A DNA stretch of 64,000 nucleotides from Bryobacterales bacterium (GTDB lineage Bacteria > Acidobacteriota > Terriglobia > Bryobacterales > UBA6623): NCBI GenBank assembly GCA_965226245.1, contig CBDDCL010000015.1, forward strand, positions 2,166,515 through 2,230,514, written 5' to 3'. The position numbers and the translations under genes were made by a program. Every line of letters begins with the position of its first letter. Within the stretch, counting starts at the first letter, position 1. Below, one piece after another: positions 6,780 to 41,628 of the stretch. The notes under the pieces were generated by a model. That model did not search any database, had not been told where the DNA came from, and worked only from the letters and a program-made list of their open reading frames with translations.

Positions 6780-6891
6780 GTAGGGGAGGGTCACCGTGCC
6801 CCCTTCGCCCTAAAGTGTGCCCTCCAGTTGGCGGCTGGAGGCTCACTGGGCGGCTGGCGCCCTCAAGGCGGGCACGGTGACCCACCCCTAC
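6780..6891. repeat. GTAG-type REP doublet (REPIN-like)
   Basis: GTAGGGGAGGGTCACCGTGCCC (6780-6801) and an inverted copy (6870-6891), 21/22 identical. Confidence 0.8.
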
Positions 6892-6911
6892 ACTTGGGCT
6901 CACCCCTGCAC

Positions 6912-10586: not shown

Positions 10587-11477
10587 TTATCGAAAGGTTG
10601 GGGCCGGCTGCGCGGCCAGCGACCTCAATGCCAGCAACCGCGCCGTTCTTGGATGGCCATTGTCCTCGGCCAGACGCTGAGCCGTGCGGCCCCGGTAGTC
10701 GGCCGCGGTGGGGTCGGCCGCCGCCCGCAGCAACTCCTTGACGATTTCGATGGACCCTTCCGAGGCCGCCAGCATCAGCGCCGTCCGTCCCTCGCTGTTG
10801 ACGGCCTCGACGCCGGCGTCTTTCTTCAGCAGCGTGTTCAAAATGCCGGCGTGGCCCTCGTAAGCGGCGCTGATCAAAGGCGTCCAGCCCATGCTGGAAG
10901 CCGCGTTGACGTCGGCGCCCCGTGCCAACAACAGGTCTACGCATTTTTCATAACCACGAAAAGCGCACTGCCCTAAGCCTGTGTAGCCGTTCTTGTCGGC
11001 GCCGTCGATATCCGCTCCCTTGCTCAGCAGGAGCTTGATCATTTCCAGGTTCCCCTGGGAAGCGGTATAGCTGAGCGCGGTGCCTTCGAGCGCGGCGACC
11101 AGATTCGGGTCGGCTCCGCGGTCCAGCAGCAGCCCCGCCACGGCGGCGTGCCCGGCATAGGCGGCCGAGTGAATTGCCGCCCGCCCCTGGGCGTTCTGTG
11201 CATTGACGTCCACTCCCGAGTCCAACAGAGCTTCGACCACTTCGATGTGACCTTGCGACGCCGCGGCTGCGAGGGCCCGGCGCCCTTGCTCGGCTTCCGG
11301 GGTTCCGTGGTAATCGAGAAACGCCCTGACCTCGCTGATCTTTCCGTCGCGAGAGAGTTCGACAAGGTCACCTTCGGGCGGGCTCGAACAGGCAACAAGA
11401 AACACTGCGGCCAGCGGGGCGAGCGCCGCCTGGAAAATCGCTCTGGCGGATGGTTTCATCACTGCGAACTCAACCAT
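10587..11477 (-). CDS. Ankyrin-repeat protein, probable lipoprotein
   Basis: Multiple GxTxLxxAAxxG ankyrin repeats and lipobox-like LVAC. The upstream ORF extension is a tandem repeat, so the start is placed at 11477 (or 11459). Confidence 0.85.
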   Translation of the reverse strand: MVEFAVMKPSARAIFQAALAPLAAVFLVACSSPPEGDLVELSRDGKISEVRAFLDYHGTPEAEQGRRALAAAASQGHIEVVEALLDSGVDVNAQNAQGRAAIHSAAYAGHAAVAGLLLDRGADPNLVAALEGTALSYTASQGNLEMIKLLLSKGADIDGADKNGYTGLGQCAFRGYEKCVDLLLARGADVNAASSMGWTPLISAAYEGHAGILNTLLKKDAGVEAVNSEGRTALMLAASEGSIEIVKELLRAAADPTAADYRGRTAQRLAEDNGHPRTARLLALRSLAAQPAPTFR

Positions 11478-14166: not shown

Positions 14167-15455
14167 CTTAGTCCTCCTTCCCATAAATACGATGACGTAT
14201 TGTGGGGTGGCTTCTTTGGTTTTGCCTCGGCTAGACTGGTCTTAACACGGAGACCAGTCGATGCCAAGAAAAAGCCCCTTCTCCATCAAGCTTACATCCG
14301 AAGAGCAACGAGTGCTGCAAGCGAGGGCCCGAAAGTATACCTCATCGTATCGAGACGTGATCCGGGCCAAGATCGTCTTGCTTGCCGCCCAAGACCTCTC
14401 CAATGACCAGATCGCTCGGCGCCTCGACACCCCCCGTCAGATCGTCAGCAAATGGCGCAAACGCTTCTTCCTCGACCGCCTGGCTGGTCTCGAAGAGCAG
14501 CCCCGCGGCGGTCGTCCGCCGACGTTTTCCCCCTCAGCTCGTCGTCGCCGTCAAAGCCCTCGCTTGTGAATTGCCCGCCCAGTCCGGCTTGCCGCTCTCC
14601 CGTTTCTCCGTCTCCGAGATTCGCCATGAGGTCCTGCGTCGAGGTCTGGTCGCCGACATCAGCGGCGCCACCCTCTGGCGCTGGCTCGACTCGGATGCGC
14701 TGCGCCCCTGGTACCACCGCAGCTGGATCTTCCCCCGCGACCCCGACTTCGCCGAAAAGGCCGCCCGCATCCTGGATCTGTACGAAGGCCGTTGGCAGGG
14801 CAGTCCGTTGGGGGCAGACGATTTTGTTCTCTCCGCCGACGAAAAAACCAGCATCCAAGCGCGTCAGCGTAAGCATCGCGGCAAGCCGCCTGCCCCCGGC
14901 CGCTCGGCTCGCGTCGAGAATGAATACAAGCGCCTCGGTGCTTGGGCTTACCTGGCGGCTTGGGATGTTCATCGCGCCAAGCTGTTTGGCCGCTGCGAAA
15001 CGAAAAACACCAGCGCCGGGGTCGATCGTCTGGTGGCGGAAGTGATGAGTCAGCCGCCCTACTGTTCGGCCCGGCGGGTTTTCTGGATCATGGACAACTG
15101 CTCGACTCATCGCGGCGACAAGGCCGCCGAGCGCTTGCGCACGCGCTGGCCCTCGGCGGTGCTGGTCCACACGCCGGTGCACGCGAGTTGGTTGAATCAG
15201 ATCGAGATCTACTTCTCGATCCTGCAACGCAAGGCCCTCACCCCGAATGACTTCTCTTCGCTTGACGAACTCGAGGAGCGCCTCCTAGGTTTTCAGCAAC
15301 ACTACGAGCAAATCGCGACCCCTTTCCGGTGGACCTTCACGCGCCACGATCTCAAGCGCTGGCTGGCCAAGCTCGATAACTCTAGCCTCACTCCTGCCGC
15401 TTAGGTTGATACCCTACAAACATACGTCACCGTAATTCTGAGGCAGAGGACTTAG
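14167..15455 (+). mobile_element. IS630-family insertion sequence
   Basis: Imperfect ~35-bp TIRs (CTTAGTCCTCC...TACGATGACGTAT versus reverse complement of the right end CTAAGTCCTCT...TACGGTGACGTAT). CTAG flanks at 14163-14166 and 15456-15459 (equivalent to a TA duplication). Confidence 0.88.
14261..15404 (+). CDS. IS630 transposase in two frames (HTH + DDE), likely -1 frameshift
   Basis: HTH ORF 14261-14569. DDE ORF has ADEKT, IMDNCSTH and HASWLNQIEIYFS. Frames overlap at TTTTCCCCC (~14525-14533). Confidence 0.85.
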
Positions 15456-15501
15456 CTAGAGGCAATGCTGTTCACTTAGAGCCTCCGAGTCCAGGGTCTT
15501 T

Positions 15502-15648
15502 GAGCCGCGAAGCGGCGCAGGATCGTAGCCCAGGGTGGAGCGAAGCGGAACCCTGGGTGCGAATACCATCAAGGGTAAGCCCCGCACGGGGCGTAGGAGC
15601 AGACCGGCCCGTTCGTCTCCGAGGAGAGCAATGTGCGGCGGGCGTTCA
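15502..15648. repeat. ~145-bp dispersed REP-like element (CCCAGGGTGGAGCGAAGCGGAACCCTGGG family)
   Basis: Inverted homolog at 38205-38349 and partial copy at 37935-38044. Confidence 0.8.
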
Positions 15649-17078: not shown

Positions 17079-17366
17079 ATGGCAATGAAGAATCCTGTGC
17101 ATCCGGGCGCCATTGTGCGCCAGGACTGCCTGAAACCCTTGGACCTGTCGGTCACCGGGGGGGCAAAGAGGCTTGGCGTCGGGCGCCAAACGCTTTCCAA
17201 CCTCGTGAACGAAAAGACATCCGTGTCCATCGAAATGGCCTACCGGTTGTCGAAGGCGTTCGGCTCGACTCCGGAGACCTGGCTTGGCATGCAGTTGGCC
17301 TTCGACCTCGCCCAATCGCGTGACTTGGAACGAAAGATCAAGGTGAAGCGCATCGAGGCCGCGTAA
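17079..17366 (+). CDS. higA: HigA-family antitoxin
   Basis: MKNPVHPG...RQTLSNLVN...SIEMAYRLSKAFGSTPETWLGMQ. RBS AGGAGG upstream. Confidence 0.9.
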   Translation: MAMKNPVHPGAIVRQDCLKPLDLSVTGGAKRLGVGRQTLSNLVNEKTSVSIEMAYRLSKAFGSTPETWLGMQLAFDLAQSRDLERKIKVKRIEAA

Positions 17367-23412: not shown

Positions 23413-24055
23413 ATCAGCCCCATCAGTCCCCGACTTTCCCCCGCGCTCGTCGAGCCAATGGACGAGAAGGGGACCTTTTTATTCCCCCGCCGGAGAAATC
23501 AGGCTAAGTGGCTTGGTCGGAGTATGTTACGAACCAACAACCGCTGATTGCTTGGTGGTAGCGCGATGTCGCAATAGCTATCTCGACCTGCACTGAGAGG
23601 AGCGTTCACACATGCGGGCTGCGTCCACCCACCCTTAGTTTCCACCTCAGCAGCGGTGTCCGTTATCTAAGAAACCGACTGGGTTGGCCCCTCGTGCTCT
23701 AGGGCGTCCAACTGAATCAATTTGGTGCCTTCCAGTCAAGAATTAGACCCTGCGACTTATTGAACGCCAACATCAGTCCAGGCCATTGTTAATACTAGGG
23801 TCGGCCTATGTCGCAGTACTTGGTACACACGGCTCTTTCGAGAATGTATTCCTTCATACGGTCCGCAGTTCTGTGTCGTGATGATCGTGCTGTTACGAAA
23901 CAGTCCGATGACGCCCAAAGCCCTGCGGGCAAAGAGGTTCGCCTTCATGCCGAGCCGAGACCGAGGGGGTTGGTAGCATGATTCCAAACAGGACGACTTC
24001 GGAAGCTCAGGTTCCAAGAGTGGTCGAGGATACCCTACCACCGGCTGGAGAGGCT

Positions 24056-24534
24056 ATGAAGGTGCGGACTCGTGAGAAGCGCCAGCGGCTCCGTAGCGAA
24101 TTTTTCCGCGGCAGGAAGCTGCGGATTGGCTACCGCGGGCAATTGCTGGTCGCTAAGGTGGTCGACTCTAGCGACCACGGGCTGGGAGTGGAGATGTCCG
24201 CACCACTGGAGATCGACTCGTTCGTTTCGTTCGTTGGTATTGGACTCCGAGGCCGCGCACAAGTTATGCACTGCCGACCCAGCGACGACGGCGTGTTCCA
24301 TGCTGGACTCAAGATTGAAGCAGTCAGTTTCGGCAAACTCGATGTCTCCAGCCGGGCACTCCCCAGCGAAACCGTCAAGGCATATAACCCGCGTGATCGA
24401 TTACTCAATGCAGGTGCGATTGGGGAACCAAAAGGCCGCGGTACAGATGATCTTGTCGAAGGAGTTGAAGAAATGCATTGCGACGGCACCCAAGACTCAA
24501 GTGAGGAGAGATCTCGGATCAACGTTTCGGAGAG
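24056..24534 (+). pseudogene. 5' part of an interrupted gene: PilZ domain
   Basis: RxxxR (RQRLR) and DxSxxG (DSSDHG) motifs, RBS GGAGAGG. Cut at the TSD and in frame with 34824-36812. Confidence 0.75.
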
Positions 24535-25561
24535 ATGGGGTATTTAGTTGACTCCAGTAGCCACTACATCTTGGGGGTGGGGGTGCCGGCCCTGGTGGCC
24601 TCGACCATTGTCTTATAGGGAGCAGGGTCGGCGGCGACCGCCTGCTGGAGGAGGCGATAGAAAAGTTTGCCGCGCGACCGTGAGGTCCGCCGGTTGAAGC
24701 GGAACGTGAACTCGTCCAGGTAGTAGTCCAAATACTCGTGACTGACAGCCCCCTGGTGGGTCCCCAACAGCCAGCGCTTTAGCAGAGAGGCGACACGATG
24801 GACTCTCGGCAGCAGCTTACTCGCCGATTGCCGCTTCCCGCGCAGCACGGTGACTTCATGGCGGTATCCTTTGTTCTCCAATCCCGCATAGCCTTCCCAG
24901 CCGTCGGTGTGCACGAGGCTGCCAGGTTGGATAGCTTCTTCGACAAAGGCTTCCAAGCTCGCCGCTGAGGCATCCGCGATCCGACGGAGCCGGATGCGAC
25001 CCATACCGCGCCCATCCTCCTCGGCAGCAACCGCAACTAACGCTTTGCCAACCATTTCGCGACCTCGGACGCCCTCTTCGACTCCGCCCACATACGTTTC
25101 GTCCACCTCCACCCGGCCGACCAGCCGATTGCGACCGGGGCGCACCATGGCGCGGCGGAACTTGTGCAGCCAGGTCCAGGCGGTTACATAGCTACCCAAA
25201 CCCAAGACCCGCTGCAACTCCAGCGCGCTGGCCCCGCCTTTTTGCGTTGTCACCCACCAAGCCGCCCGGAACCACAACGTCAAGGGCTTGCGGGTGTCCT
25301 GGAAAATCGTGCCCGCCGTCACCGAGGCCTGGTAACCGCAGTCGGCGCAGAGCAGCAGATTGCGTTTGCTGGCCCATGAGGACTGGATCCCACAGCGCGG
25401 GCACACGAACCCCTCCGGCCAGCGCAGCTTCAGCAGGTACTCCCGGCACGCCTCCTCGGTCGAGAATCGAGCTTCCAACTCGACGAGGTTTCGGGGGTAG
25501 TCCTCCTTCATGCCCCCAACCACAACATATTGTGGCTACTGGAGTCAACTAAATACCCCAT
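24535..25561 (-). mobile_element. IS1595-family IS, copy 1 (transposase 24564-25523)
   Basis: 30-bp TIR ATGGGGTATTTAGTTGACTCCAGTAGCCAC. Zn ribbon (CPRC/CADC) and DDE motifs (VEVDETY, HTDG, YLDEF.FRFNRR). Confidence 0.95.
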
Positions 25562-25563
25562 TC

Positions 25564-25638
25564 GCCAAGATCACGGGCGTGTCCCGTCCTACCCGCTACA
25601 GCTCCATGAGCACCCGAGGTCTCAGGACGAACCCTTAG
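25564..25638 (+). pseudogene. C-terminal HTH relic of a serine resolvase/invertase
   Basis: AKITGVSRPTRYSSMSTRGLRTNP* resembles resolvase HTH tails. Truncated by IS copy 1. Confidence 0.5.
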
Positions 25639-25842
25639 CGTGTATTTCAACACGAATCTGGTCGGTACCCCTCGTGCGGGGCGTCCCTGATGCTGTCGAT
25701 GAGTCGTTGGGTTTGGTTCATGGTGTCTCCTTCGATGGTTTGCTGTGTTTTCCCTTCACCAGGGGAAGAGGGAGAACCACAAACCAGAGTAGGAGACTAG
25801 AGCGAGCGCGGGGCGACGGGCAAGGACCAGATAAGACAACGC

Positions 25843-26460
25843 GAGTGACAGACGCTGAAAGCGAGCGGAGCGTTCTGGCGCGAGAGTTGCCCTGGGACGC
25901 CGCCAACGGCGGGCCGCTGTGAGCGGAAAGGCACCACAAGCAAACACTCAATCGAAGCGGGAAGAAAAGAACAAGCGCGGCGAAGCGAACGGCTCCGCCG
26001 CGCCCTGGCGCGGTTGCCCGCTAGGACTCGTCCACCTAAACCTCCGGGAGTTCTGCTTCTGCCGGAAGCTGGAAGAGGCGCGTGTGGGCGAAGTCGGCCA
26101 CTTTCGCAAGCACCAACAAGTCGTTGCGCCCGAAGCTCTGCGTACTCTTCCATTGATCGCCTTCTTTGTAGAGGCGGGAAAAGGTGACATTGTGCCTCGG
26201 CTGTTCGTCGGTTCCATTGCGCCAAATCGTAGCCTTGACGCGACCGATCCGGACTTCTGTGATGGGTTTCTGATTAGCCATAATGTTTTTCTCCTAGAGA
26301 GTCAAAGGGTTTGTGAGCGTTTTTCGCTCACCCGCGAATGGCGGAAAACGCCCAAACCCTGACGCGGTAGGAAAGCGCCGTCCGCGCCGGTGACGGGCAG
26401 AGCCGACAAAAGCTAAGGTTGAGTGACAGACGCCGAAGGCGAGCTAAAGCGTTCTGGCGC
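25843..26460. repeat. ~40-bp direct repeats flanking the small ssb-like gene
   Basis: 25843-25881 and 26421-26460 (GAGTGACAGACGC.GAA.GCGAGC...AGCGTTCTGGCGC). Confidence 0.8.
26036..26281 (-). CDS. Small plasmid-type protein, possibly single-stranded DNA binding
   Basis: Strong RBS (AGGAGA). Beta-rich sequence EVRIGRVKATIW..HNVTFSRLYK..QWKSTQSFGRNDL. Function is inferred. Confidence 0.65.
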   Translation of the reverse strand: MANQKPITEVRIGRVKATIWRNGTDEQPRHNVTFSRLYKEGDQWKSTQSFGRNDLLVLAKVADFAHTRLFQLPAEAELPEV

Positions 26461-26697
26461 TGGCCTTGCGTCGGCCCAAACCGGGACCGGCGACGGGAAG
26501 CACGGGAACATGGCGCAACCTAGACCCGTCCGCCGCACGGCGCGAAAGCGATTTGGCGCAACACCGGAAGGCATGTCACCATTGAGCCTCGCCCGGCAAT
26601 GCTCGATCAATGGAGCAAGGGGTAACGGGTGGGAAAGTGGACCGCCCGAATCGCGGCGCTTGCAGCGCGTCGGGGATGATCCAGGGAAACCGCGATT

Positions 26698-28197
26698 TCA
26701 GCGGCGGTTCCATAAGCCGATCCCTCGCCGCCGCGCTTGTTCTTCCAGTTGAATAAACTCCGTCCGCTTGGAGAAGGGAAAGCGCCGGTAAGCATGAGCG
26801 TAGCCGTCGCGGATCAGCCGGGCGTTGAAGTTGTCTCCGTCCAGCAGGACGTAGCGAAGCCAGCGCCCGTAGCGGTCCACGGTATCTCCGGTGCGGTCCT
26901 TTTGGAGTAGCACTGTCTTACCTTCGAGCGCCGCCTTGGTGAAGGCGCTTGCCTCCCGTCCGAAATACTGCACCGCTTCGGTGGGGTGCTTCGTCTCCGG
27001 GGTGTCCACGCCGATGAGCCGGACGGTGTAATTCTTCCCTTGATGGCGCACCTGGATGGTATCGCCGTCAATGGGGTATTTAGTTGACTCCAGTAGCCAC
27101 AATATGTTGTGGTTGGGGGCATGAAGGAGGACTACCCCCGAAACCTCGTCGAGTTGGAAGCTCGATTCTCGACCGAGGAGGCGTGCCGGGAGTACCTGCT
27201 GAAGCTGCGCTGGCCGGAGGGGTTCGTGTGCCCGCGCTGTGGGATCCAGTCCTCATGGGCCAGCAAACGCAATCTGCTGCTCTGCGCCGACTGCGGTTAC
27301 CAGGCCTCGGTGACGGCGGGCACGATTTTCCAGGACACCCGCAAGCCCTTGACGTTGTGGTTCCGGGCGGCTTGGTGGGTGACAACGCAAAAAGGCGGGG
27401 CCAGCGCGCTGGAGTTGCAGCGGGTCTTGGGTTTGGGTAGCTATGTAACCGCCTGGACCTGGCTGCACAAGTTCCGCCGCGCCATGGTGCGCCCCGGTCG
27501 CAATCGGCTGGTCGGCCGGGTGGAGGTGGACGAAACGTATGTGGGCGGAGTCGAAGAGGGCGTCCGAGGTCGCGAAATGGTTGGCAAAGCGTTAGTTGCG
27601 GTTGCTGCCGAGGAGGATGGGCGCGGTATGGGTCGCATCCGGCTCCGTCGGATCGCGGATGCCTCAGCGGCGAGCTTGGAAGCCTTTGTCGAAGAAGCTA
27701 TCCAACCTGGCAGCCTCGTGCACACCGACGGCTGGGAAGGCTATGCGGGATTGGAGAACAAAGGATACCGCCATGAAGTCACCGTGCTGCGCGGGAAGCG
27801 GCAATCGGCGAGTAAGCTGCTGCCGAGAGTCCATCGTGTCGCCTCTCTGCTAAAGCGCTGGCTGTTGGGGACCCACCAGGGGGCTGTCAGTCACGAGTAT
27901 TTGGACTACTACCTGGACGAGTTCACGTTCCGCTTCAACCGGCGGACCTCACGGTCGCGCGGCAAACTTTGCTATCGCCTCCTCCAGCAGGCGGTCGCCG
28001 CCGACCCTGCTCCCTATAAGACAATGGTCGAGGCCCCCAGGGCCGGCACCCCCACCCCCAAGATGTAGTGGCTACTGGAGTCAACTAAATACCCTATCGC
28101 CGTCAATCACCCACTCGACGCGGGCGGAAATCGGATCAAGTTGGGCGCTGGTGATAAGGCCCATGAAGCCACAAACAAAGATGGCTAGTCCGGTCAT
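26698..28197 (-). pseudogene. Thermonuclease (SNase-like) with signal peptide, interrupted by IS1595 copy 2
   Basis: Rejoined motifs VIDGDT, VRLIGVDTPE, DRYGR.L.YV and GLW. ATG at 28197. Confidence 0.9.
27071..28097 (+). mobile_element. IS1595-family IS, copy 2 (transposase 27109-28068)
   Basis: 8-bp TSD CGCCGTCA at 27063-27070 and 28098-28105. Two amino-acid changes and one TIR mismatch versus the other copies. Confidence 0.95.
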
Positions 28198-28223
28198 TTT
28201 GGCCCTGAGTGGTAGGGGTAGGG

Positions 28224-29183
28224 CTAGGCGTCTTCGACCTTGAGTTTTTGAATGTCCCATTGGTTTGTCCTCGCTTCGTAGCCTTTGACGAAAACTGCTT
28301 CTTCGGCGAATCGCCGTCCCTCGTGGCGCGTCATGTGAATCACCATGGCGATGCCGTCCACCACGCCTCTACAGGTTACTTCCCACGGTAGCTCCCCGCC
28401 GCCTTGCATGGCGCAACTGGCGATCCGGGATAGGGCGCTCGTTGCGTTGTTGGCGTGTACGGTCGTCAGTGATCCGCCGTGGCCGGTGTTGAGTGCTTGT
28501 AGGAGGTCCGCCGCCTCTCCGCCGCGAACCTCGCCCACGACGATGTGATCCGGGCGGTGACGTAGCGCGTGGCGGACTAGATCGCGGATCGTGACCGCGC
28601 CTTCTTGCAAACCGCGAGCCTCGAAGCGGACGCAATTCGACCGCTCGATGCGAAGCTCCAAGGTGTCCTCGATGGCAACTATTCGCTCATCATCGGGGAG
28701 AAGTTCGATAAGGGCATTGAGCAACGTGGTCTTGCCTGATCCGGTTCCGCCTGAAACTAGGATGTTGCGCCGGGACCGCAACACCCGCTCGGCTTCGGCC
28801 CGCACGTTTTCAGGGAGTGCGCCTTGCTTCACGAGGTCCGCCGCCGAGAACGCCCGCTTACCAAAGCGCCGCACGGTGATAGCGACTTGAGGACTGGCGG
28901 GCGGAACGCAGATGGCAACCCGCGATCCGTCATCGAGCCGGGCATCGACAATGGGAGAGGTCGCCGGGTCCAGTCCCAAAGGACGGGCGATATGGATAGC
29001 GGCCCGTTCCAGCGCCGCTTCGTCCAGGTCCGGCGCGGCGTGTGGGGCCAGCCGTCCGGCCCGCTCGATCCACACATTAGCGGGACCGTTAATCATGATC
29101 TCGCTCACTTCGGGATCTTCAAGGACGCTCTCTAAGCCCGGTAGAAAGGGTTTTAGGTGTTCCAGTCCGCTCGCGGCGCTCAT
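28224..29183 (-). CDS. virB11: VirB11/CpaF-family secretion ATPase
   Basis: GGTGSGKTT, IEDTLEL, RPDHIVVGEVRG and NTGHGGSLTTVHAN motifs. ATGA overlap with the virD4-like gene. Confidence 0.88.
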   Translation of the reverse strand: MSAASGLEHLKPFLPGLESVLEDPEVSEIMINGPANVWIERAGRLAPHAAPDLDEAALERAAIHIARPLGLDPATSPIVDARLDDGSRVAICVPPASPQVAITVRRFGKRAFSAADLVKQGALPENVRAEAERVLRSRRNILVSGGTGSGKTTLLNALIELLPDDERIVAIEDTLELRIERSNCVRFEARGLQEGAVTIRDLVRHALRHRPDHIVVGEVRGGEAADLLQALNTGHGGSLTTVHANNATSALSRIASCAMQGGGELPWEVTCRGVVDGIAMVIHMTRHEGRRFAEEAVFVKGYEARTNQWDIQKLKVEDA

Positions 29184-31852
29184 ATTTGGCCCGCCTCTTT
29201 CGCTCTCCAATAGGAGTGTTCGGCTGGTAGATAGTGCGGCTTGAGGTAGACGCGGCGCGGCTCAAGCGACTGCGCCCCGTCATAGGGCAAACAGATTGCT
29301 TGACAGTTCGAGAGTAAGGCGAAGTCTCGCGGGTGAAACACGGCCTCGCGCTGCTCCCGGAATGATTTGGTCGCGCCCATGCTCCCGCCTCCGCCTCCGG
29401 CCCGTCCTGAGAGCGGGGAGACTTCCGAGCGTTTGGAGGTCTCGCTGATGGTGTAAGATTCCTTGATCTTCGCCACCTGGCCGCACAACTCCGACGCGAT
29501 CTTGGCGGATGCGTCATCACTCAGCGATAAGAAAATGCGAGTACGGAGCGTCTGCAACAGCGACCGCCACGCTTCCGAGCTTCCCAAGACGGCCCGCAAC
29601 GAGGAAATAGATTGCGTGGCGACAATCGGGATGCAGCGGCATTGCCGGGTCAGCGCAAAGGATTTTTCATCGCCTGATGGGTCTTCCTCGCCCACTGAAG
29701 CGAAGGCTTGATATTCGTCACAGATAAAGACGGCGGGCCGAAAGTAGCTGCCCGGATTCGCCTTCATCTGAGCCGGTCGCATGAGAAGCGCTTGTAACCA
29801 AGCGTTCTTGAGCATCACGCCCACGGCGCGGGATAGCGCCGGGTTGATACCAGCGGGCATATTCAAGGCCAGCACCTTGCCCTGCTCGATCAACTGATAG
29901 ATCGGCGGTAGCTGGCGTGTGATCGGGGCTTCCTCTTGGGTAGGGGGTTGGTTGCTCTCGGTTGAGGGGTCGGGTGTCTGAGGGGTCTTGTCGTCCGGCT
30001 CCGTCTCCGTTATGATCCACGCCGCCTCCTTCGCCTTGACTGGTTTCGGTTCCGCCTCCTGGGGCGGGTTGTCGTCCGGCTCCGCCGCCGCCTTCGCCTG
30101 CGGCTCCGGCTGTGCCGCTTTGACCGGCTCCGGTTCCGCCTCCGGCTCCGGCTGTGCCGCTTTGACCGGCTCCGGTTCCGCCGCCTTCACCGTCTCCGGC
30201 TTTCTCGCGGTCTTTGGCTTCTTCCGCGCCTTTGGCTCGCCTCCCCATGTGTATCTGATCTCCGCCGCCTGGGGGGTCTTGTCGTCCGGCTCCGCTGCCT
30301 CCGCCTCCGCTTCCGGCTTCGGTTCCGCCTTCGGCTCCGCGTTGTCCGCCGCCGCGTCCTTCTTCGCTTTGAGGCGCTTGATTTGGGCTTGCAAGATGAT
30401 GGCTTGAGGATCGTCGGTGATGTACGGCGCGGGGAGACAAAACACCCTCGCCACGTCCGGCATATCGAACATGGAAAGGAACACCGAAACGCCCTCGACA
30501 ATCGAGGACTTGATCTTGTTGTCTAGGTTTTGCCAGTCGTGGACAAACCAGCGCTTGATGGCCTCGACGCGCTCTCTGGTATCTTTGCCGGGTCCAGATT
30601 CCCAGACGATTTCATGGGTGATTTTGAGTTCTTCGAGCTTCGCTTTGAGCGGGCGGGTGTGGACGGCTTGGTGCTGTTGGCCTCCCGGTGTACGGGTCCA
30701 GTTCCATTGTTCAAGATGTGTGAGTTGGGGTACCAGTGCGTCCGCCTCGACGAAAATGGTCCCTGTGTTGAGGTCGTCGCTCAGCTTCTCCGCCGCCTCG
30801 ATCTTGGACGCGAATAGCTCCGGCTCGATGGCACAACGGTAGACCTGTTGCAACGTCACCCATCGGTCCGGGAATACGCGGTGAAGCTCGATGATCCAGC
30901 GGACCAGATTGGTATAGGCTTGCTGCCAGAAGGGTTCCTTGCCCTTGCCGAACAACTGATTGAGCAAGCTCGAAACGGTGTAGGCAAGCGAGTACGAATC
31001 GAGCCACCAAGCCGAGAGCGGATTCCATTGAGAACGGGAGTCCATGCCAATCTCGATGTAGTCTTCTCCACGGCCCGCCTCGACGAGGATTTGGCGGATG
31101 TCGTGACAGAAATCTCCCTTGACTTCGAGCACCAGCGCCGCCGCCCGCATGTGCGGATTATGCGCTTGCCAGCCGAGAAGCTGGCGGGCAAACGGATTCA
31201 TGCAAGCCGAGGTTTTCCCTGATCCCACGGCTCCGAAGATCGCCACGCCGGTATACAGTCCGCGCTCCGGGATGGTGAGCCATGAGGGACTGAAAATCTC
31301 CCGCGCCTCGATGGGGTGATGGACCTCCCCGATAACGATGGCCGGAGCCTGTTGGTCCGCTGAAAGCGGCCACGGTGGGAGCTTGGCGAAGGGCGCGAAA
31401 TCGCGCCGCCGTCCTTCTAGCCAGACCTTCCAAATGGTGACGGAAATAACTCCGCACAGCATCACGACAACGAAGGGCGAAAGGTAGTACCAGACCAGCA
31501 TGGCCGTGAAAACATCGGGCGTGTGATATTGCACCAAAGCAAGGATCGGGTGCTCATCAAACGACGGGAAGGGACGCCGTACAAAGCTCCACACGGCATA
31601 CCACAGACCGCCGAAAAAAAAGAGCAGCAGGGGCGGAAGCCCGACAACGAATTGTACGACGCGAAACACCGTCCAGCCGAACAACATGAGACCTTGAAAG
31701 ACGCGCCATCCGGCCCAACCCAACAGCACGAAACCTTGCACGACCAGCCAGCCGAGGACGGCGAAAACCCGGATCGGGTTTTTCCAGTTCATCGGGCCAG
31801 CGGGCCGGTGCCAAAGCTCCTGAAGATTAGGGCCGATTTCGCGCCACTTCAT
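29180..31852 (-). CDS. virD4: VirD4/TraD-like type IV coupling protein with internal Pro/Ala/Glu/Lys-rich insert
   Basis: N-terminal TM segments, Walker A GAVGSGKT, Walker B ICDEYQ and ATQS motif. Confidence 0.85.
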   Translation of the reverse strand: MKWREIGPNLQELWHRPAGPMNWKNPIRVFAVLGWLVVQGFVLLGWAGWRVFQGLMLFGWTVFRVVQFVVGLPPLLLFFFGGLWYAVWSFVRRPFPSFDEHPILALVQYHTPDVFTAMLVWYYLSPFVVVMLCGVISVTIWKVWLEGRRRDFAPFAKLPPWPLSADQQAPAIVIGEVHHPIEAREIFSPSWLTIPERGLYTGVAIFGAVGSGKTSACMNPFARQLLGWQAHNPHMRAAALVLEVKGDFCHDIRQILVEAGRGEDYIEIGMDSRSQWNPLSAWWLDSYSLAYTVSSLLNQLFGKGKEPFWQQAYTNLVRWIIELHRVFPDRWVTLQQVYRCAIEPELFASKIEAAEKLSDDLNTGTIFVEADALVPQLTHLEQWNWTRTPGGQQHQAVHTRPLKAKLEELKITHEIVWESGPGKDTRERVEAIKRWFVHDWQNLDNKIKSSIVEGVSVFLSMFDMPDVARVFCLPAPYITDDPQAIILQAQIKRLKAKKDAAADNAEPKAEPKPEAEAEAAEPDDKTPQAAEIRYTWGGEPKARKKPKTARKPETVKAAEPEPVKAAQPEPEAEPEPVKAAQPEPQAKAAAEPDDNPPQEAEPKPVKAKEAAWIITETEPDDKTPQTPDPSTESNQPPTQEEAPITRQLPPIYQLIEQGKVLALNMPAGINPALSRAVGVMLKNAWLQALLMRPAQMKANPGSYFRPAVFICDEYQAFASVGEEDPSGDEKSFALTRQCRCIPIVATQSISSLRAVLGSSEAWRSLLQTLRTRIFLSLSDDASAKIASELCGQVAKIKESYTISETSKRSEVSPLSGRAGGGGGSMGATKSFREQREAVFHPRDFALLSNCQAICLPYDGAQSLEPRRVYLKPHYLPAEHSYWRAKEAGQI

Positions 31853-31922
31853 AGGTCCGTCTCCGTGCTTTCAGCGCCGCTCCTGGGGGGTTGTTCTGAG
31901 CCTTCCCGCAGGGATAAATGAG

Positions 31923-32021
31923 GACGAGAGCGACCCCCTGAGGCCGGAGTAGAGACACGGTACAGCGTGTCTCTACGAAAGGCCGCAGGTCCCCCCGCTT
32001 TTTGGGGGGGTCGCTCTCGTC
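31923..32021. other. Nested inverted repeats (oriT-like candidate)
   Basis: 16-bp outer IR (31923-31938/32006-32021) encloses an 11-bp hairpin (31949-31959/31966-31976). Confidence 0.5.
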
Positions 32022-32210
32022 TTTCTCACTCGCCCGCGTCCGAAGCGATCCGGGCCGCTTCAAAGCGGCTAACCACGGCGGAATGAGGCACATAGAGGAA
32101 AGCGGCTTCGCCGCATTTCTCGATTTAAGCGTGCGACACCCCCCCCCTCTGAGCGTGTCACAATCTGCATGGGGCGTTGTACCATAAAAAAATGGCCTAT
32201 TTCCCGTCTC

Positions 32211-33164
32211 TCAGCCGCTCTCATCTCGCTCCGCAAACCGCACGGCCCGCCATGTCGAATAGTCGTCAATCGAGACTGCTCCGGTAGCTCCGTTAGCTTC
32301 GGGTTCGGGGGGCATTCTCATGAGTGCTGCCGCCCGTTTCATGGCTAACGGTTCTCCGCCGTAAGGGATGAAAAACTCCGTGTTGTTTTGGATTATCGCG
32401 TCTTGGATGGCCTTGATTTCCTGGTTCACCGTCAGTCCTTTATCGGGTGTCCCTGGCTCCGCCGCCGCCCATGTTTGAAGCACTCGCGCCGTCCGGTCCA
32501 CGGTGGCATTTTCAACCGCAATTCCGATTACCCGAACCTGCCGCCCCTTCTTGCGAAGCGCATCCCAAAGCGGCCCATGCACGGCTCCCCACGAGTGGAG
32601 TTCACTATCCGTCTGGTTGCCCGGATCGACGTAGACAAAGGTGATGGTTTCAGGGTCCACGGCAAGAGGCAGTTTAAGGGCAAAGTAGCGCTTTTGGTTA
32701 GCCGCCACACCGTAGTAAATCCGGCGCGGAAGCAAGCGGAGCGGCAAGCCGAGCTTCTCAAAAAACTCGACCTTCTCCGGCTCGGCGGGGAGCCAATTCA
32801 TAGCTGGATGTTGCAGCACAAAATCCAGCGATAAAAGCCGCCGTATGAGAACAGGCTTTTTGGCCTTTCGCCGGTGACGGATGTTCTCGACGCCTAGCGC
32901 CCGGTAGATGGCGTTGCTCGATATGCGGCACGGTCTAGCGCCCCCGGAGAACATGAAGTTTTCGTTTTCGACCGCCGCTCGGCGCTCTATCAATGTCTCG
33001 ACGAATCGTTGCGCCCGTTGACGACCCGTACTGAAATAATCACAGAACTGCCCCCGCGTGAATACGCCGCTGTGAAGACACACCAGCGCGATCCATTCCG
33101 CGTCCGGGCCGGTCCATCCGAGCGGTTCCAGCTTGCAATCTCTTCCCCGTAAATGCTCGATCAT
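32211..33164 (-). CDS. Uncharacterised T4SS-associated protein (wHTH-like N-terminus; possible relaxase-like)
   Basis: Long ORF translationally coupled to the virB8-like gene (ATGA). No canonical HUH relaxase motif is visible. Confidence 0.7.
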   Translation of the reverse strand: MIEHLRGRDCKLEPLGWTGPDAEWIALVCLHSGVFTRGQFCDYFSTGRQRAQRFVETLIERRAAVENENFMFSGGARPCRISSNAIYRALGVENIRHRRKAKKPVLIRRLLSLDFVLQHPAMNWLPAEPEKVEFFEKLGLPLRLLPRRIYYGVAANQKRYFALKLPLAVDPETITFVYVDPGNQTDSELHSWGAVHGPLWDALRKKGRQVRVIGIAVENATVDRTARVLQTWAAAEPGTPDKGLTVNQEIKAIQDAIIQNNTEFFIPYGGEPLAMKRAAALMRMPPEPEANGATGAVSIDDYSTWRAVRFAERDESG

Positions 33165-33787
33165 AATTGATCTCCGGTGACGGTGGCCCGGTCGCCTTGC
33201 AAGTAGGTGATGACGATTCCCATGGGGTTGAACACGATCAACTCCGTGGGGATTTGGTGGAGGAACTGGAATTGAAGCGAGAGCGTCCAGCGTTCCCGGC
33301 CCACTTCGTTTTCCATCTCCATTCGCACAATGTCAAAATCGGCGGTGGCGCTGTGCGGCTGCTGAGGGTTGGGTTGAATCCTCAAAATGACGCGGGCGAC
33401 TTGCAATTCTCCCCGCGCCACGCCCGCCGCGAGAAGGGCGACATTTTGGCTCTCGGTGCGAAACGAGGCATTGGCGAGTGGCGTGCTGAGGAAGCGCAAG
33501 CTGCGGGACCAGTTCTGTGCGACCGTGGCCCGCCGCCGCGAGTAGAAGTCATAGATAAAGCGGTTGAGGAAATACTTGGTGGTGGGGTCCAGCGGGTCGG
33601 CCTGGGCCTCCATCACTTTGTAGGCGACGGCCTCGGCCCGCCCGACTTCATCAACCCTGACGACGATGGGACGAGGCGGCTCAACCGAAACAATGCGGAA
33701 GACGACGAGGATGAGCAAAAGCACTGCGATAGCCAGCCCAACAGATATCACCCGTAGATGACGGTTGGTGTGGATGGTTTCGCCCCA
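33161..33787 (-). pseudogene. VirB8/TrbF-like protein, 5'-truncated by IS copy 3
   Basis: Single TM followed by PIVVRVDEVGRAEAV and YFLNRFI..FYS. The frame is open to the IS boundary and hits a stop inside the TIR. Confidence 0.7.
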
Positions 33788-34814
33788 ATGGGGTATTTAG
33801 TTGACTCCAGTAGCCACAATATGTTGTGGTTGGGGGCATGAAGGAGGACTACCCCCGAAACCTCGTCGAGTTGGAAGCTCGATTCTCGACCGAGGAGGCG
33901 TGCCGGGAGTACCTGCTGAAGCTGCGCTGGCCGGAGGGGTTCGTGTGCCCGCGCTGTGGGATCCAGTCCTCATGGGCCAGCAAACGCAATCTGCTGCTCT
34001 GCGCCGACTGCGGTTACCAGGCCTCGGTGACGGCGGGCACGATTTTCCAGGACACCCGCAAGCCCTTGACGTTGTGGTTCCGGGCGGCTTGGTGGGTGAC
34101 AACGCAAAAAGGCGGGGCCAGCGCGCTGGAGTTGCAGCGGGTCTTGGGTTTGGGTAGCTATGTAACCGCCTGGACCTGGCTGCACAAGTTCCGCCGCGCC
34201 ATGGTGCGCCCCGGTCGCAATCGGCTGGTCGGCCGGGTGGAGGTGGACGAAACGTATGTGGGCGGAGTCGAAGAGGGCGTCCGAGGTCGCGAAATGGTTG
34301 GCAAAGCGTTAGTTGCGGTTGCTGCCGAGGAGGATGGGCGCGGTATGGGTCGCATCCGGCTCCGTCGGATCGCGGATGCCTCAGCGGCGAGCTTGGAAGC
34401 CTTTGTCGAAGAAGCTATCCAACCTGGCAGCCTCGTGCACACCGACGGCTGGGAAGGCTATGCGGGATTGGAGAACAAAGGATACCGCCATGAAGTCACC
34501 GTGCTGCGCGGGAAGCGGCAATCGGCGAGTAAGCTGCTGCCGAGAGTCCATCGTGTCGCCTCTCTGCTAAAGCGCTGGCTGTTGGGGACCCACCAGGGGG
34601 CTGTCAGTCACGAGTATTTGGACTACTACCTGGACGAGTTCACGTTCCGCTTCAACCGGCGGACCTCACGGTCGCGCGGCAAACTTTTCTATCGCCTCCT
34701 CCAGCAGGCGGTCGCCGCCGACCCTGCTCCCTATAAGACAATGGTCGAGGCCACCAGGGCCGGCACCCCCACCCCCAAGATGTAGTGGCTACTGGAGTCA
34801 ACTAAATACCCCAT
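33788..34814 (+). mobile_element. IS1595-family IS, copy 3 (transposase 33826-34785)
   Basis: Same TIRs and same protein as copy 1, opposite orientation. Confidence 0.95.
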
Positions 34815-34823
34815 TCGGAGAGT

Positions 34824-36812
34824 ATGTCTCAACTTGCTCCCGTGAGTACACAAGAAGCAACGACTACGGACAGTGCCGGACAAGCAGGCTCGCCGGATAG
34901 GGAAGGGCAAGCTTCAACAACACCTTCTGAGATGGCCCAAACCATCCCTCAAGCCGTGAAGCAAGAACTGCGAGACTCAAAACTCGATGAAATTCTTCAG
35001 CGTTGGACCGAGACCCAGCAGCAAATCGCGGAGTTGAAGGCGAATGTGTCCGAACAACACGCTGAGCTTGCGGCCGCAAAGGAGACGCTGTCGCGGTTGT
35101 GTGCGGAGACTGAAACAGCCCAGCAGTTGCAAGCCAGTAGAGTTGACTCCATACTGGAGCGCCTGGCGGTGCATGAGGCTGAGCTTCCAAAGTTGAACTC
35201 TATCGAGGATCTCTCGGGGAAGAAAAATGGAGTAGTTCAGCGCCTCGACCTGCTATCGAAAGTCTCAGGTTCGGCCTATGAAGTAGAGAAGCATCGTCAG
35301 ACCGCGGAGCCCGTTCCCGATCAGACCGAAGCTCCCCAAACGTCCGCGGAAAAGGGGGCGGCCGAGCTTGCGGCCAGCAGTGGCTCTACTCCGCCAGAAA
35401 GTCCCGCCGGGATCGCAGAAGAGGAACCGGAAGTTGAGCCAGCGGGCGCACCGCCCGCGAGGCAACGGTGGATTTCGAGCCGTGTCTTGAAGCTGGCGGC
35501 CGCCTGCGTGGCCGTTGTCCTGGCCATTGCAGTCGCTTACTGGATCTCCTCCGACGGCTCCTTCCAACAGGCCTCGAAGGTTGCCGCCTCGACGATTGCT
35601 CCAGAGACCCATGTAGCCGTTCCTCTGCGAGGAGTTGTCTTGGACGAAGGCACCGGAGGTCCAATCACGCATGCGACCCTCTATAGCGGCGGCGTGGAAG
35701 TAACAACCAATGCGCGGGGAGAGTTTGAACTACCCTCCGGCGTCCTCCGCGGGTCATTGGGGGTGAAAGCCGCCGGCTACCGGCAACGAACGCTGGAGCG
35801 GCTTGAAGATCCGCTCACGGTCCGCCTGGAGGCGATTCAGGTCAAGGCGATCTACGTCAGCCAATCCCGGATGGCTCACCCGGAGGGGTACCGGGCTATC
35901 CGCGAGCTGCTCGACGAGACGCCATTGAACACCCTGGTTGTTGCCGTCAAGTCGCCCCGCGGAAGGCTCATCCTGCCCGTCGAGTCCCCAGTGGCTGAGC
36001 AGCTTGGCGCTTACCGGCCTGACTGGCCGGGCAGCCTCGCGGAAGAGATTCGGTCTTTGAAAGAACAGGGGGTCTACACGATCGCGTATATCGCGGCGTT
36101 CCGCGACGACCTGGTGGCTCGGGGCAAGCCGGAGCTGGCGCTGAAGAGCCTCAAGACGCACCAGCCCGTTCGGGACGTCTCCGGTCTCGGATGGACCAAT
36201 CCGGCTCTGAAGGCGGTGCGGGATTACAACCTTGCGGTAGCCAAGGCTGCCGCTGAGGCGGGTTTCGATGAGATTCAATTTGACTTCGTTCGCTACCCCG
36301 TGAGCCGCTTGAGTGCGGAAGGTACGGACGCGGCGGAACGTCAGCGCCGCCTGCAGGCTGTGGTTGAATTTCTCCGCGCCGCCAATCGAACGCTGGCCCC
36401 CTACAACGTTTATGTGAGCGCCACCATGTTTGGTTCGTCGTGCGACATGCAGCGGGTCAGTCTTGTCGGCCAGAAGCTCGAGGAATTCGCCGCCGCGGTC
36501 GATTACGTCTGCCCGATGCTCTATCCCTCCGCGTTCGCTTCGAGCGCGAGTTTCCCAGACCCGTTGAAGCGTTCCTACGAGCTGGTTGAGCAGAACCTCA
36601 GGACGGCGGCCGGGCGTTTAGGGGGGCAGAGCTACAAACTCCGCCCCTGGCTGCAGAACTTTGCACCGGCGGGATCTTCCGTGCGTGCGATCGACGCAGA
36701 GACCATCGCCTCGCAGATCCGGGCGGCTGTGGACTCGCGCTCCAGCGGTTGGATGCTGTGGGACCGCACGAGCCGCTATCCCAACACGCGCGAGGCGCTG
36801 TCGATCCCGTAA
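34824..36812 (+). CDS. 3' part of the interrupted gene: coiled coil, TM helix, carboxypeptidase-regulatory-like domain, DUF4015-type putative glycoside hydrolase
   Basis: KAIYVS, GVYTIAYIAAFRD, GFDEIQFDFVRYP, DYVCPMLYPS, LRPWLQNF and GWMLWD motifs. In frame with the PilZ part across the TSD. Confidence 0.82.
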   Translation: MSQLAPVSTQEATTTDSAGQAGSPDREGQASTTPSEMAQTIPQAVKQELRDSKLDEILQRWTETQQQIAELKANVSEQHAELAAAKETLSRLCAETETAQQLQASRVDSILERLAVHEAELPKLNSIEDLSGKKNGVVQRLDLLSKVSGSAYEVEKHRQTAEPVPDQTEAPQTSAEKGAAELAASSGSTPPESPAGIAEEEPEVEPAGAPPARQRWISSRVLKLAAACVAVVLAIAVAYWISSDGSFQQASKVAASTIAPETHVAVPLRGVVLDEGTGGPITHATLYSGGVEVTTNARGEFELPSGVLRGSLGVKAAGYRQRTLERLEDPLTVRLEAIQVKAIYVSQSRMAHPEGYRAIRELLDETPLNTLVVAVKSPRGRLILPVESPVAEQLGAYRPDWPGSLAEEIRSLKEQGVYTIAYIAAFRDDLVARGKPELALKSLKTHQPVRDVSGLGWTNPALKAVRDYNLAVAKAAAEAGFDEIQFDFVRYPVSRLSAEGTDAAERQRRLQAVVEFLRAANRTLAPYNVYVSATMFGSSCDMQRVSLVGQKLEEFAAAVDYVCPMLYPSAFASSASFPDPLKRSYELVEQNLRTAAGRLGGQSYKLRPWLQNFAPAGSSVRAIDAETIASQIRAAVDSRSSGWMLWDRTSRYPNTREALSIP

Positions 36813-37554: not shown

Positions 37555-37746
37555 TCAACGGGCACGCGGCGATACGCTGGTCAACGATGGGACCTTGCGC
37601 AGGGGCCGAGGGAGTTTCCTGATGCGGGCCGAGGCCTCGCAGGGGTCCACGGCTTTCTGGGCGTTGAGCCAGAACTCCGGGGTTGTTCGGAAGGCGTCGG
37701 CGAGTTTGAGCGCCATCTCCGCGGTCACCGAGGCGCGGCCGTTCAC
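37555..37746 (-). pseudogene. C-terminal half of a HigA-type antitoxin
   Basis: VNGRASVTAEMALKLADAFRTTPEFWLNAQ. A second shorter relic lies at 38066-38104. Confidence 0.75.
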
Positions 37747-38349
37747 GATTCGCACCCAGCAACCACGGAAGAAGCGGAACCACTCGAATTGCGCCCGCTG
37801 GTAGCCCTTTAGTCGCCGAAAAACCGCTATACCCCGACGCCCCAATCCGCCCTCCTCACATCGCTCTCCGCGGAGACGGACAGGCCGTAGCCCTTTAGTC
37901 GCCGAAAAACCGCTATACCCCTACGCCCCAATCCGCCCTCCTCACATCGCTCTCCGCGGAGACGGACAGGCCCTGGATGGTTTTCGGACCCAGGGTTCCG
38001 CTTCGCTCCACCCATGGGCTACGATCCTGCGCCGCTTCGCGGCTTAACGGCTCAACGGTTCAACCGAGCGCCATCTCGGCGGTCAGCGAGGTGCGGCCGT
38101 TCACGATTCGCACCCAGCAACCACGGAAGAGACGGAACCACTCGAATTGCGCCCGCTGGAAGCCCTTTAGTCGCCGAAAAACCGCGATACCCCGACGCCC
38201 CAATCCGCCCTCCGCACATCGCTCTCCGCGGAGACGGACAGGCCGGTTTGCTCCTACGCCCCGTCCGGGGCTTGCCCTGGATGGTTTTCGGACCCAGGGT
38301 TCCGCTTCGCTCCACCCATGGGCTACGATCCTACGCCGCTTCGCGGCTC
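37741..38349. repeat. Complex locally duplicated repeat cluster
   Basis: ~82-bp unit at about 37805-37886, 37890-37972 and 38163-38245. Blocks 37741-37808/38100-38166 and 37988-38044/38292-38349 are duplicated. Confidence 0.85.
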
Positions 38350-38450
38350 AACCGCTCAACGGAACAGCGACTCAACCGCTCAACGGCTCAATGGAAAAGC
38401 GGCTCAACCGCTCAACGGCTCAAACGCTCAACCGCTCAACGGAAAAGCCG
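38347..38450. repeat. Degenerate 8-bp tandem array (CTCAACCG/CTCAACGG/AAAAGCGG variants), 13 units
   Basis: Read directly in 8-nt register. Confidence 0.9.
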
Positions 38451-40487: not shown

Positions 40488-40516
40488 TTTCGCTTTTTGT
40501 TCGCCCATGGTACAAT
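40488..40516 (+). promoter_or_regulatory. recA promoter: extended -10 (TGG TACAAT) and candidate LexA box TTTC-N7-GTTC
   Basis: TGGTACAAT at 40508-40516. TTTC (40488-40491), 7 nt, GTTC (40499-40502): one mismatch to GTTC-N7-GTTC. Confidence 0.5.
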
Positions 40517-40560
40517 TGCGGACAAGACCATTGTCCGCCTGGAAAAAGGAGCTTATCCAA

Positions 40561-41628
40561 ATGGATCAGAAAGATCGTGAACGCAGCCTAGAGCTGGCGC
40601 TAGGTGAAATTGAAAAAGCCCATGGAAAGGGATCGATCCTGCGTCTCGGGTCGCGAGACGTTGTCCCGGTCAGCGCCATCCCGACCGGATCGATTTCGGT
40701 GGACTCCGCCCTGGGAGTGGGCGGATTGCCGCGTGGCCGGGTTGTCGAAATCTTCGGACCGGAATCCTCCGGCAAAACCACGCTGGCGCTGTCCGCGCTT
40801 GCCCAGGCCCAAAAATTGGGGGGGATGTGCGCCTTCATCGACGCCGAGCACGCCATGGATCCGATCTATGCCGCAAAGCTCGGTGTCGATGTCGACAATT
40901 TGCTGGTCTCGCAACCCGACAGCGGCGAGCAAGCCTTGCAGATCGTTGATGTTTTGGTCCGCTCCAGCGCCATCGACCTGCTTGTGGTGGACTCGGTCGC
41001 CGCACTGGTCCCCCGGGCCGAGCTGGAAGGAGAAATGGGCGACAGCCACATGGGTCTGCAAGCGCGCCTGATGTCGCAAGCTCTGCGCAAGCTTACGGGA
41101 GCGGTGTTCAAGTCGAACTGTTGCCTGATTTTCATCAACCAGATCCGCGAGAAGATCGGTGTCATGTTCGGCAGCCCGGAGACGACCACCGGCGGCCGCG
41201 CTTTGAAGTTTTACACCTCCATACGACTCGACATTCGCCGTATCGGTCAGATCAAGGACGGCGATCGCGTGATTGGCAACCGCACCAAGGTCAAGGTCGT
41301 CAAGAACAAGGTCGCGCCGCCATTCCGGCTGGCCGAGTTCGACATCATGTACGGCGAGGGCATCTCGCTCGAAGGCGACCTGCTCGACCAGGGAGTCGCC
41401 AACGGCATCGTGGCCAAGAGCGGCGCCTGGTACTCCTATGGAGGCGAGCGCATTGGTCAAGGCCGCGAGAACTCCAAACAGTTCCTGAGGGACAATCCGG
41501 ACATTCGTGACCGGCTCGAAACCGAGCTGCGGCAGGCGCTCGGCCTGGCCCCGCAGCCCCGCCCCGAACTCGCGGAAGTTCCCGAGGACGAAAAAGCCGC
41601 CAGCTCAAAGGCAGCCGCGCAGGGGTAG
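40561..41628 (+). CDS. recA: Recombinase A
   Basis: [37 protein letters not shown] and GGRALKFY motifs. Confidence 0.98.

Follow-up and report, generated by a model that had tools for sequence, protein, structure and literature searches.

The question raised by this locus is whether two identical insertion sequence (IS) copies and the DNA between them entered a bacterial chromosome together. The window, meaning the whole stretch of DNA analyzed, covers 64,000 nucleotides of contig CBDDCL010000015.1 (Bryobacterales bacterium, assembly GCA_965226245.1, positions 2,166,515 to 2,230,514), and the interval in question is 24535-34814 of this window. With high confidence, this interval is interpreted as a composite (compound) transposon that was inserted as one unit into a chromosomal gene of the DUF4015 family.

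The IS copies were found by a repeat search of the window, and their ends were set by reading the junctions and by comparing the copies with each other. Four copies of one 1027-bp element, c1 to c4, were found. The copies, the transposase genes of the two outer copies, and the duplicated target sites are as follows.

24535-25561, minus strand: c1, left flank TCGGAGAG, right flank TCGCCAAG
25511->24564, minus strand: c1 transposase, 315 aa, with the right terminal inverted repeat (IRR) outer and the left terminal inverted repeat (IRL) inner
27071-28097, plus strand: c2, flank CGCCGTCA on the left and on the right
33788-34814, plus strand: c3, left flank TCGCCCCA, right flank TCGGAGAG
33838->34785, plus strand: c3 transposase, IRL inner, IRR outer
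62971-63997, minus strand: c4, left flank TAATCCCG, right flank TAA, truncated by the window end
24527-24534, no strand: left target-site duplication, TCGGAGAG
34815-34822, no strand: right target-site duplication, TCGGAGAG

c1, c3, and c4 are 100% identical, and c2 differs from them at three positions (901, 966, and 1025). c1 and c3 are inverted with 8226 bp between them, and the unit from 24535 to 34814 measures 10,280 bp. The 8-mer TCGGAGAG abuts both outer IS ends with its two copies in direct orientation, while the inner flanks are unlike (TCGCCAAG at 25562-25569 versus TCGCCCCA at 33780-33787). An identical IS pair brackets the passenger DNA, and the duplication surrounds the whole unit rather than the single IS copies. 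The chance that a specified 8-mer recurs at one specified position is 4^-8 (p about 1.5e-5), and with 3 occurrences in the window against 3.8 expected, TCGGAGAG shows no enrichment. The transposase reads from inward to outward in both c1 and c3; therefore, both outer ends of the unit are the IRR, the transposase-distal end. An earlier note on this DNA had described two inverted 1027-bp IS1595 copies, an equal outer 8-mer with differing inner flanks, transposase-distal outer ends, and a separate 8-bp duplication at c2. This description proved accurate to the base.

The unit separates two parts of one chromosomal gene.

23978-24534, plus strand: 5' part of the disrupted target gene, about 185 codons, assigned by the excision frame and homologues
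34823-36812, plus strand: 3' part of the disrupted target gene, DUF4015 glycoside-hydrolase-like domain (Pfam DUF4015, 1.4e-76)

When 24535-34822 was deleted in silico, the open reading frame (ORF) 23978-24534 was fused to the DUF4015 ORF 34824-36812 in a single frame of 848 aa. Homologues of the 848-aa protein include P0001, which is uninterrupted (752 aa) with 100% identity, and P0002, which covers 100% of the restored protein at 71% identity. P0001 is encoded on L002, a 973-kb contig of a different ENA assembly that shares synteny with window 14788-46866 (99.6-99.97% identity). The site in L002 has a single TCGGAGAG and no insert, and reads ...CAACGTT TCGGAGAG TATGTCTC..., in full ...CAACGTTTCGGAGAGTATGTCTCAAC... 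Conversely, the same composite is found at the same site in L096, on a separately assembled 7.19-Mb contig (ERZ28763718), with 5 mismatches in 18,708 bp (99.97%). The unit is a discrete insertion, present or absent among genomes that are more than 99.6% identical; this polymorphism, like the second location of a nested unit described below, is indirect evidence of mobility. The surrounding DNA is chromosomal: recA lies at 40507-41628, and genes for a pseudouridine synthase, a gamma-glutamyltranspeptidase, and glycosyltransferases are nearby. The earlier note had proposed transposition of the whole unit into the chromosome and had asked for an empty site in relatives. The near-identical L002 provides this empty site, and together with the same arrangement in L096 and the chromosomal flanks, it supports the proposal.

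A PilZ-like reading of the N-terminal 185 aa of the target gene, based on RxxxR and DxSxxG motifs seen by eye, was rejected as it had no Pfam support. The N-terminal part of the gene is also interrupted in L002, the strain without the composite. The interrupting sequence is a 528-bp non-coding element resembling a miniature inverted-repeat transposable element (MITE), with terminal inverted repeats CCTGAATTATGCA, at L002 9442-9969 (window about 24235-24239). The MITE-like element is also present at about 10770-11300 of another contig, L001, and is absent from the window. Since it lies in L002 and the composite lies in the window, the target gene has been hit by two different mobile elements in near-identical lineages.

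The DNA carried between c1 and c3 is of plasmid origin, and its features are as follows.

25564-25638, plus strand: remnant of a resolvase-type HTH_7 ORF, last 24 codons (AKITGVSRPTRYSSMSTRGLRTNP*), cut by the inner end of c1
26036-26281, minus strand: 81-aa ORF, plasmid-derived, with an identical protein beside SNase on L098; no Pfam or NCBIfam match
26698-27070, minus strand: C-terminal part of SNase (thermonuclease-like), Pfam SNase 3.9e-27, split by c2
27071-28097, plus strand: c2, a simple insertion with the 8-bp duplication CGCCGTCA at 27063-27070 and 28098-28105
28098-28197, minus strand: N-terminal part of SNase, called as a 38-aa fragment in L096
28224-29183, minus strand: VirB11/TrbB-type secretion ATPase, 319 aa, Pfam T2SSE 1.6e-49 and TIGR02788 VirB11 1.5e-65, the latter match being below the equivalog cut-off
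29180-31852, minus strand: VirD4-like type IV coupling protein, 890 aa, Pfam TraG-D_C and TrwB_AAD_bind
32211-33164, minus strand: 317-aa ORF between virB8 and the coupling-protein gene, also in L093 and L094; no family match in Pfam or NCBIfam
33161-33787, minus strand: virB8 minus its first 16 codons, Pfam VirB8 1.1e-12, cut by the inner end of c3

The whole type IV secretion system (T4SS) cluster is present on two plasmid-like contigs, L093 (52 kb) and L094 (76 kb). The order is trbC, virB3, virB4 (807 aa), virB9, virB10, an unnamed ORF, virB6, and virB8 (224 aa), followed by the 317-aa ORF, the 890-aa protein, virB11, and SNase (154 aa). The cargo from 33787 to 28095 matches both contigs at 98.8-98.9%, and the match begins exactly at the c3 junction. 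The c3 site, 48 nt into virB8, is uninterrupted in both (...GAGATA|TGGGGCGA...), giving an intact 224-aa VirB8. Similarly, the c2 site is empty in L094, with a single TGACGGCG, and is also uninterrupted in L098, a 26.5-kb plasmid-like contig found through its exact 81-aa protein. When c2 and one duplication are removed from the window, the 154-aa SNase ORF is restored. L098 is 99.5% identical to window 27072-25552. The c1 site in L098 is uninterrupted through CTTGGCGA, the reverse complement of the inner c1 flank, and lies inside an 89-aa ORF with an HTH_7 score of 26 bits against a gathering score of 23.8. All three IS sites are empty in the plasmid relatives, and therefore the resolvase-like gene and virB8, which the earlier note had named as cut by the inner ends, are correctly identified. 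The cuts fall in the HTH_7 ORF and after codon 16 of virB8.

The 890-aa protein was also considered as VirB4. This was ruled out, because the intact plasmids L093 and L094 encode a separate 807-aa VirB4 upstream; the 890-aa protein is thus a VirD4-like coupling protein, and no more than part of the conjugation module is present in the cargo. Relatives of the coupling protein in PLSDB are distant (29% identity or less), and near-identical homologues are abundant on 30-80-kb ENA contigs. Neither a relaxase nor an integrase was found within 24535-34814 by Pfam, NCBIfam, and the plasmid comparison, and virB2-B6, B9, and B10, which are present in L093/L094, are absent from the unit. An integrative and conjugative element or an integrated conjugative plasmid was rejected on these grounds, the T4SS being incomplete and relaxase and integrase missing from this interval. 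As judged by sequence, the cargo is a non-functional fragment of about 7 kb from a conjugative plasmid of an environmental lineage. The plasmid lineage is probably acidobacterial, and the cargo has no obvious adaptive function. An in-frame tandem repeat (42 bp x 2.1) lies inside the coupling-protein gene at window 30095-30182; homologues of the protein range from 806 to 915 aa, and this length variation possibly arises via the repeat region.

Part of the same DNA has moved a second time, an event that the window by itself does not reveal. The 12.4-kb contig L001, found via the exact coupling protein, matches window 34815-27071 (c3, cargo, and c2) at 99.97%. In L001 and at locus L095, this 7.7-kb unit, whose IS copies are direct, is flanked on both sides by the 8-bp duplication ACAAGTCA. 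An LpxD-type ORF reappears when the 7.7-kb unit is excised with one 8-mer; the junction falls between the LpxD N-terminal domain and the Hexapep repeats of this ORF. L095 lies on the 7.19-Mb contig at a distance of 190 kb from the 10.3-kb composite (L095 and L096 are at 4.79 Mb and 4.99 Mb of ERZ28763718 ctg125699), and the two 7.7-kb c3-cargo-c2 copies of this genome are directly repeated. The nested unit keeps the cargo-side junction of c2 and joins the IRL to the new target, which indicates that its source already had c2 in SNase. Two end pairs, IRR-IRR (inverted) and IRR-IRL (direct), thus appear to have each mobilised a composite with an 8-bp duplication. A pseudo-compound, IS26-type unit would have direct copies and, moving by cointegration with an IS already in place, would leave no new target duplication. 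It was rejected: the copies of the 10.3-kb unit are inverted, and those of the 7.7-kb unit are direct but come with the new duplication ACAAGTCA.

A further IS copy has inserted close to the 5' end of the lpxD-like gene that holds the second copy. The IS copies share single-nucleotide polymorphisms (SNPs) in a patchy manner (901, 966, and 1025), which suggests gene conversion.

The simplest history that accounts for these junctions has three steps. Three independent IS insertions would have occurred in plasmid-derived DNA, in the resolvase HTH gene, in SNase, and at codon 17 of virB8. The transposase, treating the 30-bp terminal repeats as equivalent, would then have paired the outermost ends, the IRR of c1 and the IRR of c3, and moved the whole interval into the chromosomal gene with duplication of the 8-bp target TCGGAGAG. 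Separately, pairing of the c3 and c2 ends (IRR and IRL, direct) would have placed the nested unit into the lpxD-like gene at ACAAGTCA. We infer the order of these events, the identity of the donor, and the DDE chemistry. Cut-and-paste and copy-and-paste transposition would each be consistent with finding both units in one genome.

The behavior of the IS at other loci was compared. Many identical transposase genes are present in the 7.19-Mb contig. An identical IS copy is also carried by L003, a 38,959-bp plasmid-like contig (ERZ25074053 ctg443165_16x_c) that is circular by name, which indicates that the IS is common to chromosome and plasmids in the community. L003 also carries RepA_C, ParA, GmrSD, and a type I restriction subunit. 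The comparison of simple insertions covered c2, ten retrieved loci, and another copy in L001; in L003, L006, L008, L010, L011, and L012 the IS position is 5951-6977. A clean 8-bp duplication was observed in five of them (c2, L004, L005, L007, and L009). The IS is apparently active at present and polymorphic between near-identical strains.

Several observations weigh against whole-unit transposition from a plasmid donor. The remaining simple insertions are less regular. In six (L003, L006, L008, L011, L012, and L001 9669-10736) the 8-bp repeat is shifted by 1 nt, mostly with one additional base, which varies, separating the repeat from the IRL end. The L010 copy has no target duplication (flanks ATCCGCAA and TATCCTCC), so the definition of the ends is not fully uniform. 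The 1-nt offset could arise if the ends are cleaved imprecisely and a base of the donor flank is carried along, and the state of L010 suggests later IS-IS recombination or an adjacent deletion. At the c2 junction, with target TATCGCCGTCAAT, another parse gives a longer duplication and an IS end shorter by 3 nt. The IRR tip of c2 reads ACCCTAT instead of the ACCCCAT of the other copies (position 1025), and it is the same in all four assemblies; the simple reading of this difference is a point mutation. Identity of the plasmid relatives to the cargo is 98.8-99.5% for one half and only 89-94% for the other, which indicates that the true donor is unsampled or mosaic. No plasmid backbone bearing all three IS copies came to light. 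That the IS insertions occurred independently on a donor plasmid, as the earlier note had supposed, is a strong inference. Furthermore, the junctions rest on assemblies and not on reads.

This last point bears on repeat-induced misassembly, in which the assembler, misled by the identical IS copies, would have placed a plasmid fragment in the chromosome. Misjoins classically arise at identical repeats, here of 1027 bp, and the 12.4-kb contig L001 starts and stops inside IS copies. However, the same arrangement appears in the separately assembled 7.19-Mb contig, and a misjoin would not put the same 8-mer, in direct orientation, exactly against the two outer IS ends. Misassembly also leaves unexplained why the 8-mer occurs exactly once at this position in a relative, and the inner junctions map to colinear plasmid positions; we give this explanation hardly any credence. 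A very improbable alternative is recombination or cointegration, in which a solo IS at TCGGAGAG received an IS-bearing plasmid that later deletions and inversions trimmed. Substrates exist, since the chromosome has many copies of the IS and L003 carries an identical one, and the SNP patterns among the copies point to gene conversion. Nevertheless, a single crossover or cointegration predicts direct copies with identical inner flanks, and here the copies are inverted and the flanks differ. Recombination between inverted copies inverts intervening DNA and cannot delete it, yet the cargo follows the order of the plasmid map. Under intramolecular replicative inversion, an inner flank should read CTCTCCGA (the outer 8-mer reverse-complemented), which neither does; IS-IS inversion was rejected for the same missing signature. 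Several extra, unrecorded steps would also be needed.

A different donor under the same composite mechanism is also to be weighed, namely that the insertions took place in a chromosomal plasmid remnant or an integrative and conjugative element, followed by intragenomic transposition. The 7.19-Mb genome has two cargo copies 190 kb apart (L095 and L096), and this co-occurrence in one genome indicates intragenomic movement of at least the nested unit. The failure to find a plasmid with the IS copies in place also favors such a donor. On the other hand, for each half of the cargo, the nearest relatives without an interruption lie on plasmid-like contigs of 26-76 kb from related samples, and the exact coupling protein was found at only these two chromosomal locations. 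A chromosomal donor is therefore considered unlikely, although it deserves to be kept in view. A broader version of the composite reading is improbable. It holds that any two ends can pair, so that the plasmid sheds overlapping composites, that the coupling protein, VirB11, and the 317-aa protein may form a module retained by the host, and that the 1-nt offset may reflect unusual end-processing. This module is intact and present twice, and, if retained, it might be, for example, a domesticated ATPase pair for DNA or protein translocation rather than debris.

The composite transposon is built from an element whose family can be assigned. The 1027-bp IS has ends ATGGGG...CCCCAT with 30-bp perfect terminal inverted repeats and a single transposase ORF of 315 aa counted from its ATG. 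The transposase matches Pfam DDE_Tnp_IS1595 (PF12762, 6.5e-33, 114 bits versus a cut-off of 27), Pfam Zn_ribbon_IS1595 (PF12760, 9.3e-15) at N-terminal residues 22-65, and the NCBIfam IS1595 model NF033547 (205 bits versus a cut-off of 75). The IS1595 family is defined by one transposase and target duplications of 8 bp, with a zinc finger in every group but IS1016 (PMC8101967). Here, DDE_Tnp_IS1595, an N-terminal zinc ribbon, one ORF, terminal repeats, and an 8-bp duplication were all found, and the size was judged against a range of roughly 0.7-1.2 kb for IS of this family. The ISSod11 subgroup is possible; its signature, which we take to be DDHK, an E-R(+4)-R(+7) motif, and ends like nnnGcnTATC, was set beside motifs read by eye (...RVHRVASLLKR... 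and ...LDEFTFRFNRR...) and the IS ends ATGGGGTATT. The nearest transposases in GTDB representative genomes share 66-75% identity, mostly from Bryobacterales, Terriglobia, and other Acidobacteriota metagenome-assembled genomes, and none in this set exceeds 75%; this distribution points to a Bryobacterales acidobacterium as the probable host. The best PLSDB match is 60% (Methylocella). The closest named relative is of the ISRama1 type at about 52% amino-acid identity. With IS1595-family IS that have 315-aa zinc-ribbon transposases, the element shares a single ORF, an N-terminal zinc ribbon, DDE_Tnp_IS1595, a length of about 1 kb, an 8-bp duplication, and terminal repeats. By the usual naming conventions, the element is predicted to be a new IS of the IS1595 family.

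The earlier note had regarded composites bounded by IS1595 elements as rarely documented. This view needs correction, as Tn7052 (PMC7835479) and Tn7560 (PMC12561309) have been described. Tn7052 (ISEc69-mcr-2-pap2-ISEc69) is found on E. coli plasmids, and its transposition with 8-bp duplications was experimentally observed (PMC7835479). As in Tn7052, two IS1595-family copies mobilise the DNA between them here, with use of the outermost ends and 8-bp duplications. However, the ISEc69 of Tn7052 belongs to the IS1016 group and has a 217-aa transposase without a zinc ribbon, whereas the transposase here has 315 aa and a zinc ribbon. Tn7052 has direct copies, AT-rich targets, and resistance cargo; the present unit has inverted outer copies, GC-rich targets, and a dead plasmid fragment. 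The mobility of Tn7052 is experimental, and the evidence here is comparative only.

The IS1016-flanked cap locus of Haemophilus influenzae is a classical case of passenger DNA flanked by IS1595-family elements. Tn7560 is an ISApl4 pseudo-compound transposon of Actinobacillus pleuropneumoniae, in which strain AP_123 has 39 IS copies, most with 8-bp repeats (PMC12561309). In both of these systems and in the present one, IS1595-family elements flank passenger DNA and the host genome has many IS copies. The copies are direct in Tn7560 and in the cap locus, and the IS copies of Tn7560 are without flanking direct repeats. In contrast, the 10.3-kb inverted and 7.7-kb direct composites both have clean 8-bp duplications, which indicates true whole-unit transposition. 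Tn10 (IS10) and Tn5 (IS50) belong to the IS4 family, with 9-bp duplications, resistance cargo, and cut-and-paste transposition through hairpins. The present unit resembles them in that the IS copies are inverted, the outside ends move the whole unit, and different mobile units can result from different pairs of IS ends, as in the nested c3-c2 unit. The mechanism is established for Tn10 and Tn5, but not for the IS1595 family.

The kind of element is already known, and no new mechanism or element class is involved, but the comparative record of this case is unusually full. The present case differs in its IS subgroup, inverted outer copies, GC-rich targets, non-adaptive plasmid-fragment cargo, and acidobacterial host. 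It offers a clean natural record of the formation and movement of an IS1595-family composite outside clinical Proteobacteria, the group from which such units had been described. The outer target, the three inner IS sites, the plasmid source, and the nested transposition are all recoverable from public assemblies. Plasmid-to-chromosome gene flux is thereby documented in uncultured soil Acidobacteriota, probably Bryobacterales.

Minor observations were made in the window. A consensus scan of the IRR end found no outward promoter as a possible driver of the 3' gene remnant. A 112-bp internal IS fragment at 62806-62917 (IS positions 269-384, 96.6% identity) lies 53 bp to the left of c4 in the same orientation, and it may have been left behind by an older copy or an aborted event. 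A second, unrelated IS is represented by an IS630-type transposase gene (DDE_3 and HTH_32) at 14382-15404. A 34-bp indel at about 17157-17190 sets the window apart from L002. An 86-bp tandem unit (98% identity) is present at 37801-37972, and related short dispersed intergenic repeats are located at 37708-38362, about 15500-15644, and about 4907-5062.

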